DNA of 32,000 bases from Candidatus Saccharimonadota bacterium (GCA_963677765.1 OY782392.1:60001-92000), one strand, 5' to 3'. Numbered from the stretch's first letter, positions 4,591 through 17,556 are shown. A program made the numbers and translations. Notes: a model not told the origin generated them from the letters alone.

Positions 4591-4730
4591 AAATAAAAAA
4601 CTTGCTATATATCAAATATAAATATAATTAAATTTGTAAAACTAAATTTTTTCATTTGTGTTCAATAGTTATCAGAATAATCATGGCCATTTGTGAATAA
4701 TTTATTTTACGGTTTTTATTTAATTAGTAC

Positions 4731-4994
4731 ATGTATATGGAAACTAAAAAATTATTCATTGGAGGTTTATCTTGGGGGTTAGATTGGCAAGAAATCAAAG
4801 ACGTATTTAAAGAATACGGAGAAGTTGTTTTCGTTAAAGTTATCAAAGATAGAGAAACTGGAAAATCTAAAGGTTTTGGTTTTGTTGAATTTGAAAACTT
4901 AGAAGATGCTGTTAAAGCTAAAGAAGCTATGGACGGTGCTGAAGTTGATGGTAGAACAATTAAAGTTGATTTTGCTGTTGAGAAAGAAGCATAG
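4731..4994 (+). CDS. RRM-type (RNP-1/RNP-2) single-domain RNA-binding protein, 87 aa
   Basis: RNP-2 LFIGGL and RNP-1 KGFGFVEF are both present. Intact ORF even under the standard code; TAG stop 4992-4994. The start may be ATG 4731 or ATG 4737. All 9 Gly are GGN and there is no TGA. Confidence 0.9.
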   Translation: MYMETKKLFIGGLSWGLDWQEIKDVFKEYGEVVFVKVIKDRETGKSKGFGFVEFENLEDAVKAKEAMDGAEVDGRTIKVDFAVEKEA

Positions 4995-5039: not shown

Positions 5040-5100
5040 TTTGAAAAATATATAATTTTAGTTATAATACAAAAAATTTAAAGTTAAGTAATTATATATT

Positions 5101-5421
5101 ATGACTGATAATCAAAAAAACTTCTGTCCATTTCTAGATTTTATGTGATTTTTATCAAAAAAATGGATTTTAATAATAATAAAATCCATAAGTGATTGAT
5201 GTAAATCATACTCAGATATAGAAAAAAATCTTGTATGAGTAAATCCAAGAATATTATCAAATAGATTAAAAGAATTACAAGAACAATGATTTGTAGAGAA
5301 AAAAACTATATCTAAAACTCCTCATAAAGCAATATATTGTTTAACAAAAAAATGAGAATCTCTTTCTTGTCATATACAATCAATTAGTGATTGGGCAAAA
5401 GAAAATATGCCAAAAAAATAG
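5101..5421 (+). CDS. HxlR-family (winged-helix, DUF24) transcriptional regulator, 106 aa
   Basis: Translation MTDNQKNFCPFLDFMGFLSKKWILIIIKSI...NPRILSNRLKELQEQGFVEKK matches the HxlR pattern (CP-x-G-x-KW...L..RL..L...G.v.R). ATG 5101, TAG 5419-5421. Confidence 0.8.
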
Positions 5422-5732: not shown

Positions 5733-6971
5733 TTAGAACTTAATTTTAAAAATAGTATATTCTCATAATTTACTATCCACATTTATTTCCCATCAATATA
5801 TTTCTGATATCTTTTTTACAATTGATAATCAAATTCAATATCATTTTGTATTTCTAGATTTATCAGCTTTATAAAACCTATCCCATATATGAGATAAATC
5901 ATTATTACTAATTCATATTCAATTATCTTTTATATAAAGTTCTGATCCTTTATAATTTATATCTATTATTCATTTATTATTAGAATATTTTATAGCATTT
6001 CAAACTATATTTGATAAAAATATAAATAAATAATTTTTATTTGATTTTACAACAATATTTGATCATATATTTATATTAACCTTAATTTTTTTATCATTTA
6101 TTTCTTTTTGATAATTGGAGATTACTTCATTTATTAAATCAAGTAATTTATTACTTGATTGTGATTTAATATGACCTATATCACTAAGACTTATTAATCA
6201 ATCAATTAATCAATTAAGTTTATTAGCTTCATTTTTTATTTCTTTTATCATTGATATATCTCACTTATTTAACTCAAGCATTAGTTGAGAATTAGAATCA
6301 ATTATTGATATCGGAGTTTTTAATTCATGACCAGCATTATGAATAAAATTTTTCATATCTTTTATATTTTCTTCTACTGGTAAAAATATTTTATCAATAA
6401 ATTTTAATCATATAAAATAGATAAAAAAAGAAAAAAATAAACTTATCATAGTATAAAAAAACATATCATTTATATAATCAAAAAAACCATATCAATGTTT
6501 TTTTATTAAAACTAATTTATTTCAATTATTTAATTTTAATTTACTAAAATAATAAGAATCCTTATCATAAATTTTATTGTAATTTCATTCAGACAGAATT
6601 ATTTTTTCTAATATATTATATTTTATATTTTCTTTTATATTTGAAAATAATACATTATTATTAGAGTCCAAATAAATATAATTTAAAAGCAATTTTGGCA
6701 TATCTAGATTTTTCATTGATCAATCATCTATTTTTTTCATCATATTATGACCATCGAATCTAAAATTCCCTACTCTTAATATATCATTTAATGTAATACT
6801 TCATTTTTCTACAGAAGTTATTACATTAGAAAAAGATCTATAATCATTATTTTTAATTTGAAAATATTTAGAACTAAAAAAAACTAATCAGAATACAAAA
6901 ATAACCAAAAACACTATAACAGAAAAAGTTATAGTTAATTTAGTTTTTAATATCTTTAAATTTTTTGACAT
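5733..6971 (-). CDS. Sensor histidine kinase (two N-terminal TM segments, HisKA + HATPase_c), 412 aa
   Basis: H-box FIHNAGHELKTPISII, N-box LSNIVGNAIKYS, G1 DNGIGI, F-box WDRFYKAD and G2 GYGIGLSIVKKI all lie in one frame under code 25. ATG 6971 is 3 nt after the response-regulator stop. TAA 5735-5733. Confidence 0.9.
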
Positions 6972-6974
6972 ATA

Positions 6975-7634
6975 TTAATTAATTAAAAATCAAAATCATT
7001 TTTTTGTTTCTATAATATCTTTTCAAAGTTTTTTTCTTAAATATCAGATATAAACATCAATAGTTTTACTAAACATAAAATCTCATTCCCACTCTCACCA
7101 TACATTTTCATAGATTTGTTGTCTAGATAATGATATTCACTTATTTTGCAACAAATATTTCAATAAATTAAATTCTAAATTTGATAATTTAATCTCTTTT
7201 CAATCCTTTTTTACCTCATGTTTTTGTAAATCTAATTCTATATTATCTTTTGATAATATACTTGATTTATTTATAAGTTTTCTTCTCAATAAAGCATTTA
7301 TCCTAGCTAGTAGTTCATTATACTCAAATGGTTTTACTAAATAATCATCAGCTCATATATTAAGTCAATTAACTATATCATCATTAGTTCACATTGATGT
7401 TAACATTATTATAGAGACATCTTTTCATGAATCTCTTAAGTCTTTACATATTTCTAGTCATGAAATATTTGGTAAATTAATATCTAATATAATTGCATCA
7501 TAAAACTTTGTTTTTGCCTTGTACAATCAATCTTTTCAATCAAGAGCTACATCTACAAATATATCTTTTAGAGCAAAATACCTAACTATATTTCTTGATA
7601 GTATTTCGTTATCTTCAATTATAAGTATTCTCAT
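6975..7634 (-). CDS. OmpR/PhoB-family response regulator (REC + winged-helix), 219 aa
   Basis: MRILIIEDNEIL...AIILDINLP...IIMLTS...GADDYLVKPF is the receiver domain. LSNLEFNLLKYLLQNKG...VWGEWEG...TIDVYIGYLRKKL is the trans_reg_C domain. ATG 7634, TAA 6977-6975. Confidence 0.92.
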
Positions 7635-7692
7635 AATATTATTTTATATTTTATAATAATTATTATATACATAAATCATTATATATAAAATA

Positions 7693-7711
7693 ATTAAGAA
7701 AACATTAAGAA
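7693..7711 (-). promoter_or_regulatory. Tandem direct repeat TTCTTAAT-N3-TTCTTAAT (minus-strand sense) upstream of the RR-HK operon; putative OmpR-type operator (site A)
   Basis: ATTAAGAA occurs at 7693-7700 and 7704-7711 (11-bp register), 57 nt upstream of the RR start and just downstream of the preceding terminator. The same repeat occurs at 8306-8325 and 12312-12331. Confidence 0.55.
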
Positions 7712-7743
7712 AAAAGCTAGATTTTAGAATCTAGCTTTTTTTT
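7711..7743 (-). terminator. Rho-independent terminator after the LTXXQ protein gene
   Basis: 13-bp stem aaaaagctagatt / aatctagcttttt (7711-7723 / 7728-7740) with loop ttag, and A/T runs on both sides. Confidence 0.75.
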
Positions 7744-8218
7744 ATCTTTCCATATGTCATCTCATTTTTCCTTTACCCATTTTATTTCATTTAAAACTAT
7801 TCATTAATTCAGTTTCTTCAGTAGTTAACTCTTCACCATTTTTATATTTTTCCATAACTACTTTCATTTCTTCTCTTTTTTGCTCCATTTCTTCTTTTGC
7901 TGCTTTCATTTCAGCTCTTTTTGTAATTATTTCTTGTCTAATAACTTCTTCTTCACTTGTTAAATTATCTCAAGCTAATAATTTATCTATAACTGTTTCT
8001 CTAGTTTCTCTTTCTAGCTCTTTTTCAGTTCTAATTTCTTCAAAATAAGCTTTTTTTTCTTCTGTAGTCATAGACTCAAATTCAGATATTTGTTCATCAG
8101 TTAAATTCATTTTTCACATAAATTTCATACCTCTTTCTGAAAAGTCTGCATTTACATATGCAACACTAGATAAACCAATAGTTGCCATAGCTATAGTAGC
8201 CAATACTTTTTTGTTCAT
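7742..8218 (-). CDS. Secreted Glu/Lys-rich helical protein with LTXXQ-type motif (CpxP/Spy/ZraP-like), 158 aa
   Basis: Signal peptide MNKKVLATIAMATIGLSSVAYVNA. Mature part contains MNLTDEQISEFE (LTxxQ), later LTSEEE and LTTEET repeats, and a basic tail. ATG 8218, TAA 7744-7742. Confidence 0.6.
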
Positions 8219-8305
8219 AATAAAAAATAATTAATAAATAATATATGTATAATTAGTTAGTAATCAATGCATGCTTAATGATTACATATATATAATAATA
8301 ATTTT

Positions 8306-8325
8306 AATTAAGAAGTAATTAAGAA
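8306..8325 (-). promoter_or_regulatory. Tandem direct repeat operator (site B) upstream of the LTXXQ protein gene
   Basis: AATTAAGAA occurs at 8306-8314 and 8317-8325 (11-bp register), 87 nt upstream of ATG 8218 and 5 nt after the permease stop. The 28-nt block 8302-8329 is identical to 12308-12335. Confidence 0.55.
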
Positions 8326-8329
8326 AAAA

Positions 8330-9529
8330 TTATTCAAATCTTAATGCATCAATTGGTCTAAGTTTTGCTGCCTTATAAGCTGGTAATAATCAAAAGAATA
8401 AACCTATAAAAAGAGAAAAACAGAAACTTAATATAACAGAATTAACAGAAATAATGGAATTAATAGAAAAATAATTCAATATAAAAACTACAATATAACT
8501 AAATATAATTCATATAAATCATCATAAAATACTTAGACTTGATGCTTCTGTTAAAAATTGTAATATTATATCAATTTTTCAAGCTCAAATAGCTTTTCTT
8601 ATTCAAATTTCTTTAGTTCTTTCTGTAACTGATACTAACATTATGTTCATAACTCAGATACCTCATACAAGTAACGATATTCATGCAATTCATGCAAGTA
8701 GCATAGTTAAAGTTTCAGTAATAGAACTAAATTTTTCTAACATTTCAGCTTGATTTCTGATATTATAAGGGAGACTATTGGGATTTATAACATCTAAATA
8801 ATCTTGTAAAAAATTATCTATTTCAGTTTGAATAATATCTACATTATTAGAATCAGTAACTGAAACAATTAATTGAGAATAATATTTAGTTCACTTAATT
8901 CTAACTCATGCAGTAGTAATAGGTATAAAAACTGAAGAATCATAACTAGAGTTTTCTTCTATTACTCATATAACTAAAAAAACATTATTTCATATTTTAA
9001 ACGATTCTCAAATTGGATTATTTCAACCAAATAACTCATTTACTACATCTTGTCATAATATAGCAACCTTATCTAAAGAGTTAATATATTTTTCACTTAT
9101 ATTGTTTCAAAAAATAATTTCAATATTTCTTATATTTAGGAAATTATTATCAATTCAATATATTGTAGAGCTCATATCATTAGCTCAATAAACTAACTGT
9201 CAATTTGTAGATATGATAGGTAATATTCAATCAACTCATGAAATATTATTTTTCATTTCAGTTAATAAATTATCATCAAAAATATCAGTAGACTGAGTTC
9301 TATCTCTCGATGATCAAAACCCTCATCATGGAGAAATAGTCAAAATATTAGTTCACATTTCTTCAATTTGATCAACTATAGACTGACTACTTCAATTTCA
9401 AATTGCAGTTAATATAATTACAGAAGAAACTCATATAATAATTCATAGCATACTTAGACTAGATCTTAATTTATTTGCCCTTATTGAAATAAATGAATTT
9501 ATTATATTTTCTATTATTGTGTAAATCAT
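8330..9529 (-). CDS. ABC transporter permease, MacB/FtsX-type (MacB_PCD + FtsX domain), 399 aa
   Basis: N-terminus ...IRANKLRSSLSMLGIIIGVSSVI, a large extracytoplasmic domain, then C-terminal [28 protein letters not shown]...LLPAYKAAKLRPIDALRFE, which is canonical MacB/FtsX. ATG 9529, TAA 8332-8330. Confidence 0.9.
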
Positions 9530-9532
9530 TTT

Positions 9533-10201
9533 TTATATTTTATCAACTATTAATCAATCCTTTATTGAAATATGTTTTGATGCATATTCATCAATTTCTT
9601 TTTCATGAGTAATCAAAATTATAGTTTTTCATTCTTTATTCAATTCAGATAATAAATCCATAATTTCAATTCAAGTCTTAGTATCCAAAGCTCAAGTTGG
9701 TTCATCAGCTAATATAAATCAAGGATTAATAGCAAGAGCCCTAGCAATAGAAACTCTTTGTTGTTGTCATCATGAAAGTTCATTTGGTTTACTATTTATC
9801 TTTGTATCTAGTCATACTTTTTTTAATGCTTCTAGAGCAATTTTTTTTCTTAATTTCTTGTTAACACCTTGGTAAGATAATGGTAACATTACTTGTTCTA
9901 ATACACTCATTCTTGGGATAAGATTATAACTTTGAAAAATAAAACCTATATTCTTTCATCTTATTTTAGATAAATCTGATTCTTTTTTTCAAGATACTAT
10001 TTTATCATCAAAATAATACAATCATTCTGAAGCTATATCAAGCATTCAAATAATATTCATAAGAGTTGATTTTCAACTTCAACTAGGTCACATTATAGAT
10101 ACAAAATCTCATTTATTTATTTCTAAATCTATTCATTTTAATACCTCAATATTATTTTCTCACATTTTATATCTTTTTTTTATTCATTGTAATTTTATCA
10201 T
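9533..10201 (-). CDS. ABC transporter ATP-binding protein, MacB/LolD-type, 222 aa
   Basis: Walker A GPSGSGKSTL (all Gly are TGA), Q-loop FIFQSYNL, signature LSGGQQQRVSIARAL, Walker B ILADEPTGALD and H-loop ITHE. By my hand count 19 of 21 Gly codons are TGA. ATG 10201, TAA 9535-9533. Confidence 0.93.
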
Positions 10202-10213
10202 AATACATTTTTA

Positions 10214-12262
10214 TTAATTCATAATTGATTTATTTCATCTATTTCAAGAAGGTCATGTTGGTAATAGTGAATTATTATTTTTATTCTCTGAAGTTCATGT
10301 TATAGAAAAATTACTACTATAAATTTTATCTCAAATATTTAATCAAGATATAACCTCAGTATTTCAATTTGAACTTAATCATGTTTCTATATAAATTTTT
10401 TCCTTAATTCAATTTTTATCTATATATACATATGACTTATCTTTTTCATTATTTATAGAAGATGATTTAATCAATAAAATATTATTTTTTTCTAATGTAA
10501 TTATTTCAACATCAGCAGTAAATCATGAAAATATTTTTTTATTAAATTCTTCAGTCATTACTAATTTTACCTCATAAGAAATCACTCAAGAATTAGAAAT
10601 AGGAGTTGTATCAATGCTTGATATAATTCATCTGATTGGGTTTTCTAAATATGCATCAAAAGTAATTATTGCTTCATCTCATATTTCAACATCTACTATA
10701 TCTATTTGATCTAAGTATACTGAAATTTCAATTAAATTTGGATTTTCAATATAAATATATTTATCAGTATCATTATTTATTTTATCTCATACCATATAAT
10801 CTATCTTTCTAATAATTCAATCAAATGGAGCTGTAATTTTATAATCCTCAAGACTTTCATATGCATCATTAAGTTTTATTTCAGCTTGTCTTATAGAATT
10901 ATTTGCTTTTGTTATATTTGATTGAGTAGGTCATTCTAATAATTCCTTATAATTTTCATTAGCTATTTGAAGAGAAAATTTTTTTGATTCTATATCTTGT
11001 AACTTTTCTTCTAATTCTAATTTATTTGATACTAAAGTTTGTTCATATTCTTTTTCACTATTTGATAATGATATATATTGTTTTTCTATACTTAGTTCTT
11101 GTGATTTAATAGATTCATTAATTGATAAGATACTAGAATTATTTGATTTTGTAAGTAGTTCTAAATCAGTTAGAGTATTTAAAGTATTTAAATATCAATT
11201 TATAGAACTTATTTTATTTAAACTACTAGTTCTATATCATCAAATAGAACTTTTCATTGAATTAATATCGGATTCTGTTAAAACATCTCAACTTTCAACA
11301 CTAGCATCTACTGTATTATAAAAATATTCTGTAGTTTGTGATAAACTATTGAACAATCCAAGAAATTCATTTAATAAGCCAGTTAATTCTTCTATATTTG
11401 ATTCATAACTATATCAATCTAACTTTATAGATATTTCATTATATAAAGAGATACTAAATAATAACTCATTTCTTGCTTTATTTTTTAATGATGAATCTTT
11501 AGCTCATAAATAAATATCATAAGAATCATTAATACTCTTATTTTTATTTGTAACTCACATAATATAATCTGATTTTTCAATGATATCATTAGCTTCTAAT
11601 AATAAAACTTTTAGACTATCTTCGATATCACTTATTTTTTTATTGTTATCTGATAAAGTGTCTTGATAATTATTATTTTTTTCTTTAATCGAGTTTTCTA
11701 ATTCATCTTTTGAAATAGATAAATTATTTTCTAAATTAATAATTTCTTTTTTTAATGATTCAATATCACTCAACATTTTTTCTTCTGATATACTTTGAGT
11801 TACAAGAAGATTATCATATTCCTTTTGTGCATTTAATAATGCATTTTCAGCATCTGTTATGTTCTTTTTTGATTGCATAATAGAGCTTTCATCAGGTCAA
11901 TCATATAAATCAGATAAAGAAATTTTAGCATTTTCAAGATTAATTTTAGCTTCTTCAATAGAAGAATAAGCATCACTATTATCAATTTCAGCAATAGTTT
12001 CTCATTTCTTTACAGACTCTCATTCTTTAAAGTTTACAGATGTTACAGTTCATGAAATATTGAATCATAAACTTTGTTCATCTACTAATTCTGTATTTCA
12101 AACTACTTGTATAGTTTCTGACAGACTTCAAGTACTTACAACTATAAAATCATCTACAATAGAAATATTACTTTCATTTTTAGAAGATCAATTAACATTC
12201 AAGTAAACAAGAACTAATAATAATGGTAATAATCAAAACAATAAATACTTTTTATTCAGCAT
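10214..12262 (-). CDS. HlyD/MacA-family periplasmic adaptor (membrane fusion protein) with a greatly expanded coiled-coil insert, 682 aa
   Basis: N-terminal TM MLNKKYLLFGLLPLLLVLVYL; lipoyl-like half SGTVTSVNFKEGESVKKGETIAEID and its partner ITAPFDGIIRKIDYMVGDKI. A long N/S/K/E-rich heptad-like region lies between them and includes the supplied ORF 11555-11878. ATG 12262, TAA 10216-10214. Confidence 0.85.
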
Positions 12263-12311
12263 AATAATACAATAAAATAAAATAATATAATGAATTTATT
12301 GTATTATTTTT

Positions 12312-12331
12312 AATTAAGAAGTAATTAAGAA
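12312..12331 (-). promoter_or_regulatory. Tandem direct repeat operator (site C) upstream of the adaptor-ATPase-permease operon
   Basis: AATTAAGAA occurs at 12312-12320 and 12323-12331 (11-bp register), 49 nt upstream of ATG 12262 and immediately downstream of the terminator of the preceding gene. Confidence 0.55.
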
Positions 12332-12360
12332 AAAAACAATAACTAAATTAGTTATTGTTT
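12326..12360 (-). terminator. Rho-independent terminator after the bPH-like membrane protein gene
   Basis: 12-bp stem aaacaataacta / tagttattgttt (12334-12345 / 12349-12360) with loop aat. A T-run follows on the minus strand. The stop codon (12350-12348) lies inside the hairpin. Confidence 0.75.
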
Positions 12361-13409
12361 TCTTGCAATAATATATACATTTCTCTTATTTCATTTTTTG
12401 TTTCATCATCACCATTTTCAAAAATTTCTTTTATTCTTGATTCATGATTTAATATATATTTTCTTAATTTTATTTTATTTTCTACAGTATCAATATTATC
12501 TATTCATATTTCTGATTTAAATTTTTTTAATAATACATTAACTTCTTTTTCCATTAAAGCTAAATCATTATTTAAAACCTTCTGGCTTTCAGATAAAGTT
12601 TTTACAGGACTACCAATATAATCCATTGTCATTTCTCAATTATCCTTTTGATCTCATTCTGATAAAACAATTATATCTCCATAGTTGAAAAAAGAACCTA
12701 ACAATCATCTATATGAACTATTCATAGTTTTAATTTTATTGGCATTCATACTTTGACTATCTCACAGGATTCATCTTTGGTTATAAAAAATAATTTCTCA
12801 TGGAATAATTATTTTAAAATCCATTTCTTGATTAATCATTTTTTTCAAATAACTATAAAACAATAATGTTTGTATTATAAGTAAAAAACTATTAACTAGA
12901 CCAACTCAAAAACCTAATGCTCATCATCAAATAAGAGAAGCAAGTCATGTAAAAGAAGTAAATATACTAAGAGCAAATAATACAACAAATAAAAATATTG
13001 TTTGATTAAAAAATCTAGTAAAAACAAGATCACTTTCTTTGCTTTTTTTTATAGCTGAATGAACATCCTGAATATAAGGAACACTTCATTGTATTTTATA
13101 AAACCTATATATAAATAATATAACAATAAAAACCCAGTAAATAATATTTATTGATAAAAATCAAGCTACAATAGCAGGAATTAATTCAATTTTAGAGTTA
13201 GAAAAAGTTAAAAGATATACATTTGCAAATCATATAGCTATAACAAATAATACTCTCCAAGAATGTATTATACTATAAATCCAATGTCTTTTTACTAATA
13301 TAAGAAATCTAACTCCATCATTAGCTAGTTTTTCTAATAGTTTTGTATCTCAAGCAACATCAAAAGATTTGAATATAAATTCAAATGCTCATCTAAAATT
13401 AAAAATCAT
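12348..13409 (-). CDS. Multi-pass membrane protein with a C-terminal bacterial-PH-like (bPH/YdbT-like) segment, 353 aa (hypothetical)
   Basis: About four hydrophobic helices (e.g. WRVLFVIAIGFANVYLL, AIVAGFLSINIIYWVFIVILFIY, IFLFVVLFALSIF, GFGVGLVNSFLLIIQTLLF). These are followed by ...IIFYNQRGILGDSQSMNANKIKTMNSSYRGLLGSFFNYGDIIVLSEG, which resembles bPH_2 domains. ATG 13409, TAA 12350-12348. The family call is tentative. Confidence 0.5.
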
Positions 13410-13484: not shown

Positions 13485-15257
13485 TTAATTTACATAATCA
13501 TCCAAATCTATTGTTATATTATATTTTTCAGCATATACTTTTCATATAAAATAAACTATTTCAAAAATTTGTTTTGTATTAAGATTATTTCAATCAAAAA
13601 ATTTTTCAGAAAAATATAATCAAACATCATCAACTATATCATATGGTTTAATAGATTTTAATCAATTATTTTCTACATATTTTACAACTTTTTTTTCTAC
13701 ATATCTGTATACCACTCTTTGTGTAAGAGGATAAAAATTATCTTTATGTTCTTGTAAAAAATCAAATCTTCACAATGCAGTAACATCAGAAAGTAATTCT
13801 ACCATTGAACAATTTCTAAGAAACTTAATATCTCAAGAGTTAAATCATAAGTCAGTAAAAACTTTTTCCATTTGTCTCAAATCTTCAGAAAAATCTGTAT
13901 CATCATCATCTATATGCAAATTATAGATAGAGATATATTCTGTCATCAACTCATTTAATCATCTAAGTTTATCTAGATTTATTCATTGATTAAATATTAA
14001 ATTATTATGATTATTAGCTACAAGTTCTTTTCATTTTATAGATTCATTTTGTTCATCAAGAAATTCATTAGCTACATAAACATTATAAATAGTTTTTTCT
14101 CAATCCATATCAAGAGCAATTTCTATAGGAGCTTTTATGTGATAAAATTCTTGGAATCTTTCAGAATTAAATAAGTCAATAAGTTTATTTTCAACATGCT
14201 TTTCAAAAGATCAAATTAATCATCTAGCTCAAGATTTTTGATTAAATCAATTTTCAAGTATAGATGATATTATATTTTCTCATAATGATATTGATAAATC
14301 CATTGTTTTATAATACCTCTTATAATGCTCATTTAATTTTCTTTCTTGAATTCTTATTATTTCTAAAGCATTTTCTTTAGTAAGAGATTCAAATTCAATA
14401 AATTTATCAACTCTTCATCTAAACTCTGGAGAAAATCTTTCTTTTATTGCTTTTTTTATTATTTCAGATGAGTCTTTATTTTCTGATTCTTCTGAGGCAG
14501 AAACAAATCACATAGTTGGTTTTGATTTAGTTTCCTCTATTTCTTTTTGTCAGATATTAGATGTAAATATTATTATAGAATTTTTAAAATATCATGTTTT
14601 TCAATCTCAAAATGTAACTTTTCACTCATCCAAAATTCATAGAAGCGATTGAGCAACATCTCTATGTGCTTTTTCAAATTCATCAAATAAAATAATATTA
14701 AATCATGGCATATGTCTTATAGAATCATGAATTGTTCATGCCTTTTTAGCTCATTCATAATATCAATCTAATATTTTTGGATCTAATGGTGTTGGATCTC
14801 AATAACCAACATAAGATGGTGGAGCTCAAAATAATTGTCTTTTACTATGAGACTCTTGATAAGCTTCACAATTTATTTTTGTAAATCAACCTTCATATCA
14901 CATTAATACTTTGGATATACATTTTACTATTTCAGTCTTACCTACTCATGTAGGACCTGAAAAAAACAATACACCCAAAGGTCATTTTTTTGGCTTAGTT
15001 CATAAAACAGAGTTTTTAATTAATTGAGCAACAATTTTTTTAGCTTCATCTTGTCAAATAATTTCTTTGTTCATTTCATCGATGAATTCTTGTTCTAATG
15101 GATGTATTTCATCCAGCTCAATAGTATGACATACTCTATCTTTTACATCATAAACAATATGTTCAGTATTTTCTTCCCTCCTTTCGTTATTATTTATAGC
15201 TGTATTTCATTTTTTATATTCTAATAAAGCAACAGCTCATCAATTAGTATTTATCAT
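13485..15257 (-). CDS. Stand-alone ClpB/ClpA D2-type AAA+ ATPase (AAA_2 + ClpB_D2-small) with about 200-aa uncharacterised C-terminal extension, 590 aa
   Basis: IIGQDEAKKIVAQLI...PLGVLFFSGPTGVGKTEIVK (Walker A), NIILFDEFEKAHRDV (Walker B), IIIFTSNIG, RFSPEFRGRVDKFIEF and SGARGLI (sensor 2) follow the order and wording of Clp/Hsp100 NBD2. No NBD1, N-domain or middle domain is present. ATG 15257, TAA 13487-13485. Confidence 0.8.
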
Positions 15258-17480: not shown

Positions 17481-17556
17481 TGGTGGATCCACCGGGGTTC
17501 GAACCCGGGACCTATCGCTTAAGAGGCGAGTGCTCTACCAACTGAGCTATGAATCC
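17481..17556 (-). tRNA. tRNA-Lys (anticodon CUU), CCA encoded
   Basis: Reverse complement: GGATTCATAGCTCAGTTGGTAGAGCACTCGCCTCTTAAGCGATAGGTCCCGGGTTCGAACCCCGGTGGATCCACCA. It has a 7-bp acceptor stem, D-arm GCTC/GAGC, anticodon loop C-T-CTT-A-A, T-arm CCGGG-TTCGAAC-CCCGG and a 3' CCA. Confidence 0.93.

Follow-up and report, generated by a model that had tools for sequence, protein, structure and literature searches.

In Escherichia coli, CpxRA with cpxP/spy, degP, htpX and dsbA makes up the envelope stress response, and the CpxR box has the form GTAAA-N5-GTAAA. In monoderm bacteria, two-component systems control MacB-type ATP-binding cassette (ABC) exporters, as is known for YknXYZ-type pumps and for HssRS-HrtAB. 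Gracilibacteria are uncultivated organisms with small genomes and a reassigned stop codon. As to the DNA sites of such regulators, PhoB boxes consist of 8-bp repeats with a 3-bp linker, placed 10 bp upstream of the -10 element, and the SphR consensus is CTTAACCT, with CTTAATTCtatCTTAATTT at pstS2 as an example (PMC1906773). The CiaR box is TTTAAG-N5-TTTAAG with the -10 element at 10 nt and a final G reported to be essential; the CiaRH regulon has htrA among its strongest targets and also includes several small non-coding RNAs, each ended by a terminator of its own (PMC3091779). Here we analyze a tandem repeat, TTCTTAAT-N3-TTCTTAATTA, in 32,000 nt of DNA deposited under Candidatus Saccharimonadota bacterium (GCA_963677765.1 OY782392.1:60001-92000; this whole stretch is hereafter called the window). 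The repeat occurs in a gene cluster for an OmpR/PhoB-family response regulator, a sensor histidine kinase, a small secreted protein and an ABC exporter, and with a probability of roughly 70% we regard it as the operator of the adjacent regulator, which would work like a Pho box or a CiaR box.

The repeat is present in exactly three copies in the window, one in each intergenic region of a single gene cluster and always on the coding strand. The sites and the -10-like hexamers that follow each of them at exactly 9 nt are listed here by window position, (-) denoting the minus strand:

7693-7711 (-): site A, half-sites TTCTTAAT-GTT-TTCTTAAT, an exact match of 19.8 bits, upstream of the regulator-kinase operon
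7678-7683 (-): -10-like TATAAT, 9 nt past site A; the regulator ATG follows after 43 nt
8307-8325 (-): site B, TTCTTAAT-TAC-TTCTTAAT, 25.7 bits, in front of the gene for the small secreted protein and just past the permease stop codon
8292-8297 (-): -10-like TATTAT, 9 nt past site B
12313-12331 (-): site C, TTCTTAAT-TAC-TTCTTAAT, 25.7 bits, upstream of the adaptor-ATPase-permease operon
12298-12303 (-): -10-like TACAAT, 9 nt past site C; the adaptor ATG follows after 35 nt

The 21-nt pattern TTCTTAATNNNTTCTTAATTA has three exact matches, all on the minus strand (7691-7711, 8305-8325 and 12311-12331), and none is gained when up to two mismatches are tolerated; in 100 dinucleotide-preserving shuffles, the mean count is 0.21 and three is never reached. 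The 19-nt core with at most one mismatch likewise matches three times, against 0.08 expected. If two TTCTTAA units are allowed any gap from 0 to 20 nt, the 11-bp phasing is the sole arrangement in the window (n = 3). The half-site alone is at chance level, with 15 copies found and 13.0 expected, six of which form the three pairs; an enrichment of the half-site was thus rejected, and the non-random feature is the tandem arrangement. A weight matrix built from the sites of other genomes ranks the three window sites on top (25.7, 25.7 and 19.8 bits), whereas the best of 20 shuffles reaches 15.6 bits and the fourth window match, antisense within a gene, 15.9 bits. Sites B and C are embedded in an identity that is exactly 28 nt long (8302-8329 = 12308-12335). 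The initial annotation of this DNA had counted three copies and had seen the identical 28-nt blocks as well as the A/T-rich hexamers downstream of each site, and all of this is borne out; its distance of 49-87 nt to the start codon comes close to the 58, 88 and 50 nt that we measured from the second half-site to the ATG. No TTGACA-like hexamer was read 16-18 nt from the -10 in any of the three promoters, and canonical TTGACT-18-TATAAT and TTGACA-16-TACTAT promoters are present elsewhere in the window. What the sequence shows of a class II position is the fixed gap of 9-10 nt to TAnnAT and the missing -35.

Homologues of the regulator number thousands, the closest having 60-89% identity and belonging to Gracilibacteria where the source is named. 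Seven loci (L001-L004, L190, L191 and the paralogue locus L192) were fetched via the regulator, and since they were retrieved through the protein itself, they are unbiased by the motif; with the window, they form a set of eight that spans 60-89% regulator identity and 21-37% GC. The regulator gene of each of the eight is preceded by an orthologue of site A, in which two TTCTTAA-type half-sites are phased by 11 bp and followed by a TATAAT-like -10 after 9-10 nt. In all eight, the motif also stands before the preceding gene for the secreted helical protein, the L192 protein being assigned to this family by position only; orthologues of site B were found in L001-L004, L190, L191, L018, L040, L099, L130 and L160. 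An exporter operon is preceded by the motif in 3 of the 3 loci that have one, with the same orientation and -10 distance, and site C orthologues are those of L001, L003 and L132. The order adaptor-ATPase-permease-small protein-regulator-kinase is kept in L001 and L003, L002 and L004 have only small protein, regulator and kinase, and the kinase adjoins the regulator in every orthologous locus. In 20 protein-anchored sites, the half-site spacing is exactly 11 bp without exception, the tandem-repeat arrangement of OmpR/PhoB-type sites, and the C of the half-site is invariant. Relative entropy in these sites is high only at TTCTTAA (columns 0-6 and 11-17) and at the -10, falling to about 0 bits in the 3-nt linker, the 9-nt spacer and the flanking positions. 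L191 (36.5% GC) and L192, which are the most distant of these loci, have TTCTTAC as a drifted half-site but retain the geometry. Upstream of the regulator gene, the motif was also found in at least five further loci of a genome scan and in eight of a metagenome scan (see below). Conservation at orthologous promoters, which the initial annotation had named as a test of its proposal, is thus found in all eight regulator loci, and this comparative evidence supports the motif as a regulatory site tied to the adjacent regulator; its position before the regulator's own operon is consistent with an autoregulated two-component system, as had also been proposed.

The regulator matches PF00072 (1.9e-27) and PF00486 (2.4e-20), which places it in the OmpR/PhoB family, and the closest solved structures are DrrD, PrrA, RegX3, PhoP and MtrA. 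It reaches no NCBIfam equivalog cut-off, PhoB being the best with 168 bits against 296, and with such generic PDB neighbours the assignment to a named subfamily was rejected. The kinase scores below the NCBIfam cut-offs of PhoR (134 against 334) and PnpS and, by reading of the sequence, appears to have an extracytoplasmic segment of about 130 amino acids and no PAS domain. The recognition helix FSKTIDVYIGYLRKKLG is invariant in the regulator orthologues, and helix plus wing, FSKT[I/V]DVYIGYLRKKLG...IET[K/R]KG, are invariant in all compared regulators.

How specific is the motif beyond these loci? A relaxed regular expression applied to both strands of the window and L001-L004 (about 110 kb) gave 14 matches, all 14 in sense orientation before genes of the cluster. 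A scan of species-representative genomes with TTCTTAA-N4-TTCTTA-N11-TANNAT matched at least 120 stretches; among the 120 listed, about 20 belong to Gracilibacteria, Peribacteria or Patescibacteria assemblies, a share that we judge to be far above the share of these groups in the collection. A stricter pattern, with both TTCTTAA units and a perfect TATAAT, was run to completion on metagenomes and matched 60 stretches, about 20 of them on TGA-recoded low-GC contigs. Twelve of these about 20 recoded matches precede orthologues of the regulator, small-protein or adaptor genes (8 before regulator-kinase operons, 2-3 before small-protein genes and 1 before an adaptor operon). One metagenome regulator with 96% identity has the linker ATT instead of GTT with unchanged half-sites, and a contig of 242 kb contains two matches only, at the adaptor operon and at the regulator. 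Judged by this distribution, the motif is rare and promoter-specific, and it does not have the frequent occurrence irrespective of promoters that would have spoken against the proposal.

The pattern matches outside Gracilibacteria cannot simply be dismissed as noise, as many of them look like response-regulator boxes of other phyla: among the matches listed, many are conserved tandem repeats at the same -10 distance. They include a Bacillus repeat, TTCTTAAGAATTTCTTAAG, in three species (L014, L015, L066), matches in Erysipelotrichaceae (L006, L009, L079), and cyanobacterial-type matches (L008, L101, L112, L115, L163, L171), with TTCTTAACCATTTCTTAATAAACA..GGTATAAT in Chamaesiphon-like contigs. 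These are probably boxes of other OmpR-family regulators, the cyanobacterial ones being Pho boxes. Six metagenome contigs (L149, L154, L156, L166, L168, L172) carry a near-identical copy of the pattern, AATTTAAATTCTTAAAATATTCTTAAATATAAATATTATAATACTT; five of them have 15-19% GC and no long open reading frame (ORF) in either code, L168 has 34% GC with ORFs, and these contigs resemble a repeated non-coding element whose source is unrelated and possibly eukaryotic.

Mechanistically, we envisage that the kinase phosphorylates the regulator and that two regulator molecules would then bind the TTCTTAA(T) half-sites head-to-tail, 11 bp and thus one helical turn apart. With TAnnAT as the -10, the site would span about -40 to -22 and occupy the place of the missing -35, and the bound dimer could recruit RNA polymerase by class II activation, which we infer because the geometry matches the activator boxes of Pho and CiaR systems and a -35 is lacking. 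One signal before three units would lead to positive autoregulation of the regulator-kinase operon and to co-induction of the small secreted helical protein and the MacB/YknXYZ-type exporter, and in relatives the same signal may drive htrA, htpX and other envelope genes. That the adjacent regulator is the binding protein is predicted from sequence comparison, and that it activates rather than represses is suggested by analogy.

The window has 22.5% GC, and the standard genetic code yields almost no long ORFs; standard-code ORF calling, which finds almost no genes, was replaced by code 25. If TGA is read as non-stop, ORF coverage (at least 100 codons; totals summed over six frames with overlaps counted) rises about ninefold, from 4.4 kb to 38.9 kb, TGA sits at conserved Gly positions of the Walker A motif GPSGSGKST and of the receiver domain, and all named homologues are from Candidatus Gracilibacteria. 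Therefore, the organism uses genetic code 25 (TGA = Gly) of Gracilibacteria/Absconditabacteria. Public protein collections hold proteins of this lineage with TGA translated as Trp (P0001, P0003, P0241 and many Logan/ENA entries), and the window's own regulator is listed there at 93% identity and its own small protein at 97%; such entries slightly distort the identities and the alignment behind the structure model. On the minus strand, the genes are transcribed in the order ClpB-like protein, membrane protein, adaptor, ATPase, permease, small protein, regulator and kinase, and two genes on the opposite strand follow:

13485-15257 (-): ClpB-like AAA protein, the first gene of the minus-strand series
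12348-13409 (-): membrane protein, upstream of site C
10214-12262 (-): HlyD/YknX-like adaptor of 682 amino acids with a long coiled coil (Pfam HlyD_3, HlyD_D23, Biotin_lipoyl_2)
9533-10201 (-): ABC ATPase (Pfam ABC_tran)
8330-9529 (-): MacB-type ABC permease (Pfam MacB_PCD and FtsX)
7742-8218 (-): small secreted, charged, all-helical protein of 158 amino acids with LTxxE/Q motifs, a lineage-specific family
6975-7634 (-): OmpR/PhoB-family response regulator of 219 amino acids in code 25 (Pfam Response_reg and Trans_reg_C)
5733-6971 (-): sensor histidine kinase of 412 amino acids (Pfam HisKA and HATPase_c)
5092-5421 (+): HxlR-type regulator, adjoining the kinase gene
4728-4994 (+): RRM protein, on the strand opposite to the cluster

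A tRNA gene (17484-17556, minus strand, 69.9 bits) is the sole Rfam match in the window at the gathering threshold.

The small protein had been labelled an LTXXQ protein, which is not justified by our analyses. The motif GE(T/E)LT-x-(E/D)E recurs in its sequence, and its family is narrow, with 54 homologues that all lack a Pfam domain; the few with a named source come from Gracilibacteria. The window copy has no Pfam match, one of eight orthologues gives an LTXXQ match below threshold (21.1 bits, cut-off 24.3), and a PDB profile search found nothing relevant. An AlphaFold2 model is all-helical with a predicted local distance difference test (pLDDT) score of 74, and this only moderately confident model has no Foldseek match at E <= 0.001, so that a distant kinship may still exist. 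By Pfam, PDB profile and AlphaFold2 with Foldseek, the protein is thus not identified as a member of the CpxP/Spy/ZraP (LTXXQ/Metal_resist) group.

The surroundings of the three promoters contain the following elements:

7710-7741 (-): terminator-like hairpin with T-run, 14 pairs, -14.7 kcal/mol, which ends the small-protein gene and whose tail enters site A
12330-12364 (-): terminator-like hairpin with T-run, -13.8 kcal/mol, z = -7.2, which ends the membrane-protein gene and whose tail enters site C
8260-8285 (-): leader hairpin GTAATCA-N12-TGATTAC, which begins 6 nt past the -10 of site B

A T-run had been noted before each of the sites. This applies to sites A and C, where the T-runs are hairpin tails; at site B, no hairpin lies upstream, and the permease stop codon comes directly before the site instead. 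Three consecutive transcription units, as proposed initially, are hence plausible as far as the units behind A and C are concerned, which follow terminator-like hairpins; because of the lack of a terminator before B, a read-through from the exporter operon into the small-protein gene is possible. The leader hairpin has the same stem sequence and the same place in the small-gene promoters of 13 loci examined, being weak or imperfect in L190 and L191. Its stem, (G)TGTAAY...RTTACA(C), encloses a variable loop of 5-15 nt and begins 4-6 nt after the -10 (window 8260-8285, L001 about 9134-9156, L003, L018, L099, L130, L160, L190, L192), and lineages with long leaders carry a second hairpin, CAAAG-TTAC-CTTTG. 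As the stem sequence is conserved and not covarying, the stem could serve to stabilise the 5' end or act as a palindrome for protein binding; the leaders, including this hairpin, have no match in Rfam. In the regulator promoter, a second conserved TGTATATAAT occurs 6-8 nt past the first -10 (window 7662-7671, minus strand; also L001, L002 and L004), which may be a constitutive promoter for basal expression of the sensor system.

The exporter operon encodes a MacB_PCD and FtsX permease, an ABC ATPase and an HlyD-family adaptor and thus qualifies as a MacB-type tripartite ABC exporter; adaptor orthologues carry YknX_C. In L001, L003 and L132, the exporter operon starts with a gene for a membrane protein of 102-105 amino acids that is missing from the window operon. 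Comparison with loci that lack the exporter is instructive with regard to its origin. The membrane-protein gene upstream of the window's exporter is 93% identical to the gene directly before the small-protein gene in L004, and between L001 and L002 the corresponding flanking genes share 82% identity. L004 and L002, which have no exporter, possess one operator only: upstream of it lie the terminator hairpin and T-run as at site C, downstream of it the leader of the small gene as at site B. In the compared junctions (window 8302-12335 with L004 3905-4075 and L002 9007-9140) the breakpoint lies inside the operator repeat. By these two independent genome pairs, the exporter operon is a cassette that was gained or lost at least twice, and its boundaries are the two identical operator copies:

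8302-12335 (-): exporter cassette, bounded by the identical 28-nt operator copies at 8302-8329 and 12308-12335

This explains the 28-nt identity between the surroundings of B and C, and the gain or loss of the cassette fits a recombination between the two operator copies.

The initial annotation had described a self-contained sensing-and-export circuit with the complete cis-regulatory code in one window, and the relatives do not agree with this description. In L002 and L004, no exporter operon is found next to the sensor, and in recoded contigs the signal precedes further genes, namely HtrA/DegP-type proteases (Trypsin_2 and PDZ; L072, L123), an HtpX-type M48 protease that was assigned from its HEMAH motif (L173), as well as BatD-like, PepSY and small membrane proteins. 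Five loci of HtrA orthologues were fetched via the protein, of which those with the highest identity (77% and 68%) have the motif and the other three, more distant, lack it; altogether the htrA motif is present in L072, L123, L125 and L126 and absent in L127-L129, and the htrA locus L126 and the motif-bearing regulator promoter L121 are from the same genome. A universal htrA target is ruled out by its absence in L127-L129, and htrA is, on this distribution, a clade-specific predicted target. The circuit is therefore probably not self-contained, and as the relatives have the signal before htrA, htpX and envelope genes, the regulon looks like an envelope or secretion stress response and not like a closed sensing-and-export loop.

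Further observations in relatives concern motif copies in other places. Between small-protein and regulator genes, extra copies of motif plus TATAAT occur in L003 (9770-9960 and 8834-8925) and L192 (8729-8945), followed by 45-200 nt without an ORF of more than 15 codons and with an own terminator hairpin. These units are candidate regulator-dependent small RNAs, comparable to the CiaR-dependent small RNAs (csRNAs); a single conserved small RNA was ruled out, as the units have no sequence relatives in any fetched locus. In L133 and L147 (31% GC), a TTCTTAAGAAATTCTTAAG repeat with TATAAT lies 109 nt upstream of a gene for a DsbA/thioredoxin-like secreted protein, read from its CPFC motif, on a contig that gains ORF coverage when TGA is non-stop; a related box would here precede a further envelope-folding gene.

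What alternatives exist for an operator that is bound and used for activation by the adjacent regulator? Several points weigh against such an operator: the link between regulator and motif is one of adjacency and co-conservation only, and TAnnAT hexamers are common by chance in a genome of 22.5% GC. As this AT-rich background makes isolated -10 calls weak, the -10 assignment relies mainly on the fixed position across genomes, and the geometry is maybe not uniform, as the regulator promoters of L040, L099 and L121 also have a TATAAT 3 nt after the second half-site. Moreover, at least one genome encodes a close paralogue of the regulator, P0120, whose recognition helix is the same, which makes the pairing of regulators and sites ambiguous there. 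The same regulator could also act at the same sites as a repressor that blocks RNA polymerase by its occupancy of about -40 to -22 until a signal relieves the block. The site does overlap a region that the polymerase must contact, the initial annotation named it an operator, and the second TGTATATAAT downstream in the regulator promoters could drive independent expression, but none of the promoters has a -35-like hexamer to occlude, although canonical ones exist elsewhere in the window, and position and spacing are those of the activator sites of the family (PMC1906773, PMC3091779). We therefore consider repression rather unlikely, and activation by the adjacent regulator the better explanation.

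A different binder would have to be sought in the HxlR-type regulator encoded at 5092-5421 on the plus strand, the gene of which is syntenic in the window and L001-L004, or in a paralogous response regulator encoded elsewhere, such as the one with identical recognition helix in one genome. However, the motif persists in L190, L191 and L192 without a nearby HxlR gene, tandem direct repeats of 11 bp fit OmpR-family dimers, and HxlR/MarR-type dimers are generally reported on inverted repeats; the paralogue, in turn, is accompanied by a complete arrangement of this kind, in which the half-site is the variant TTCTTAC. Another binder is hence improbable. Could the repeats be non-regulatory, i.e. scars of cassette insertion, recombination sites or duplicated terminator-promoter junk? 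The two identical copies around the exporter operon, the lack of this operon in sister genomes and the breakpoint inside the repeat would fit, but the motif also occurs before the regulator gene and, elsewhere, before htrA and htpX, far from cassette boundaries, its conservation is limited to half-sites and -10 at a fixed spacing, and it spans lineages of 60% regulator identity and differing GC, which makes mere scars very improbable. Lowest of all we rate a general promoter element of the lineage, UP-like or a -35 of a sigma factor, that needs no specific regulator: the repeat is indeed T-rich and always at a fixed distance from the -10, but it is found at only 3 of about 12 or more transcription units of the window, other promoters have TTGACA-like -35 elements, sigma factors do not read a -35 as an 11-bp tandem repeat, and long contigs have only 1-3 copies among the matches listed. 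The operator of the adjacent regulator thus remains the explanation that we prefer.

In the literature, our searches found no description of a regulator-operator pair or a regulon from Gracilibacteria or the candidate phyla radiation (CPR). Tentatively, and with less than even odds that every part of it holds, the motif might be the first readable cis-regulatory code of the Gracilibacteria (Patescibacteria/CPR) lineage, a class-wide envelope-stress regulon in which the regulator-kinase operon and the lineage-specific secreted helical protein form the core, htrA, htpX and other envelope genes have been recruited in particular clades, small non-coding transcripts depend on the regulator, and an exporter cassette is gained and lost through recombination of its two operator copies. 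In any case, the motif is a testable handle on gene regulation in Gracilibacteria, being conserved together with the regulator from 60% to 89% identity, and it allows a prediction of co-responding genes (secreted helical protein, exporter, HtrA, HtpX), which points to envelope stress. It also defines a promoter-operator pair that could be reconstructed with recoded genes in a surrogate host. As the mechanism is standard for the regulator family and the switch of a known kind, though newly observed in this lineage, the value lies in the lineage and the regulon content and not in a new principle.

Compared with known systems, the sites resemble the Pho boxes of PhoB in E. coli and of SphR in cyanobacteria in having at least two 8-bp direct repeats with a 3-bp A/T-rich linker and an 11-bp period, which are situated where a -35 would be expected, some 10 bp before the -10, and the regulators are of the same family; SphR consensus and TTCTTAAT have the CTTAA core in common. 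Unlike in Pho regulons, no phosphate-uptake (pst/pho) gene lies downstream of the motif among the matches listed, and since regulator and kinase also miss the equivalog cut-offs of PhoB (168 of 296 bits) and PhoR (134 of 334 bits), a PhoBR/SphRS regulon was rejected. With CiaRH of streptococci, the system shares the arrangement, here CTTAAT-N5-CTTAAT with the -10 at 9 nt, the htrA target in L072, L123, L125 and L126, and the short motif-driven non-coding units in L003 and L192. The final G required in NTTAAG-N5-TTTAAG (PMC3091779) is absent in 20 of 20 sites, which have T, A or C at this position, and a CiaRH regulon was rejected for this reason; moreover, the htrA link is clade-specific (two of five protein-retrieved htrA loci), and phylum and genetic code differ; the likeness is one of site and targets.

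In case of the exporter, the permease is a short four-helix FtsX type of 399 amino acids, which sets the locus apart from Bce-type modules. Like in YknXYZ-type pumps and HssRS-HrtAB, permease, ATPase and the HlyD/YknX-like adaptor adjoin, and are apparently controlled by, an OmpR-family regulator that is predicted to bind direct repeats, with the difference that the exporter is here an optional cassette, absent from sister genomes. With regard to CpxRA, the box sequence differs, the gene order is co-directional and not divergent, and the small protein fails the CpxP/Spy/ZraP family tests. The likeness lies in a presumably autoregulated OmpR-family system that adjoins, and is predicted to be co-regulated with, the gene of a secreted small helical protein having LTxxQ-like motifs, and in the HtrA/DegP- and HtpX-type proteases among the targets in relatives, and the analogy with cpxP next to cpxRA therefore stands despite the failed LTXXQ assignment.

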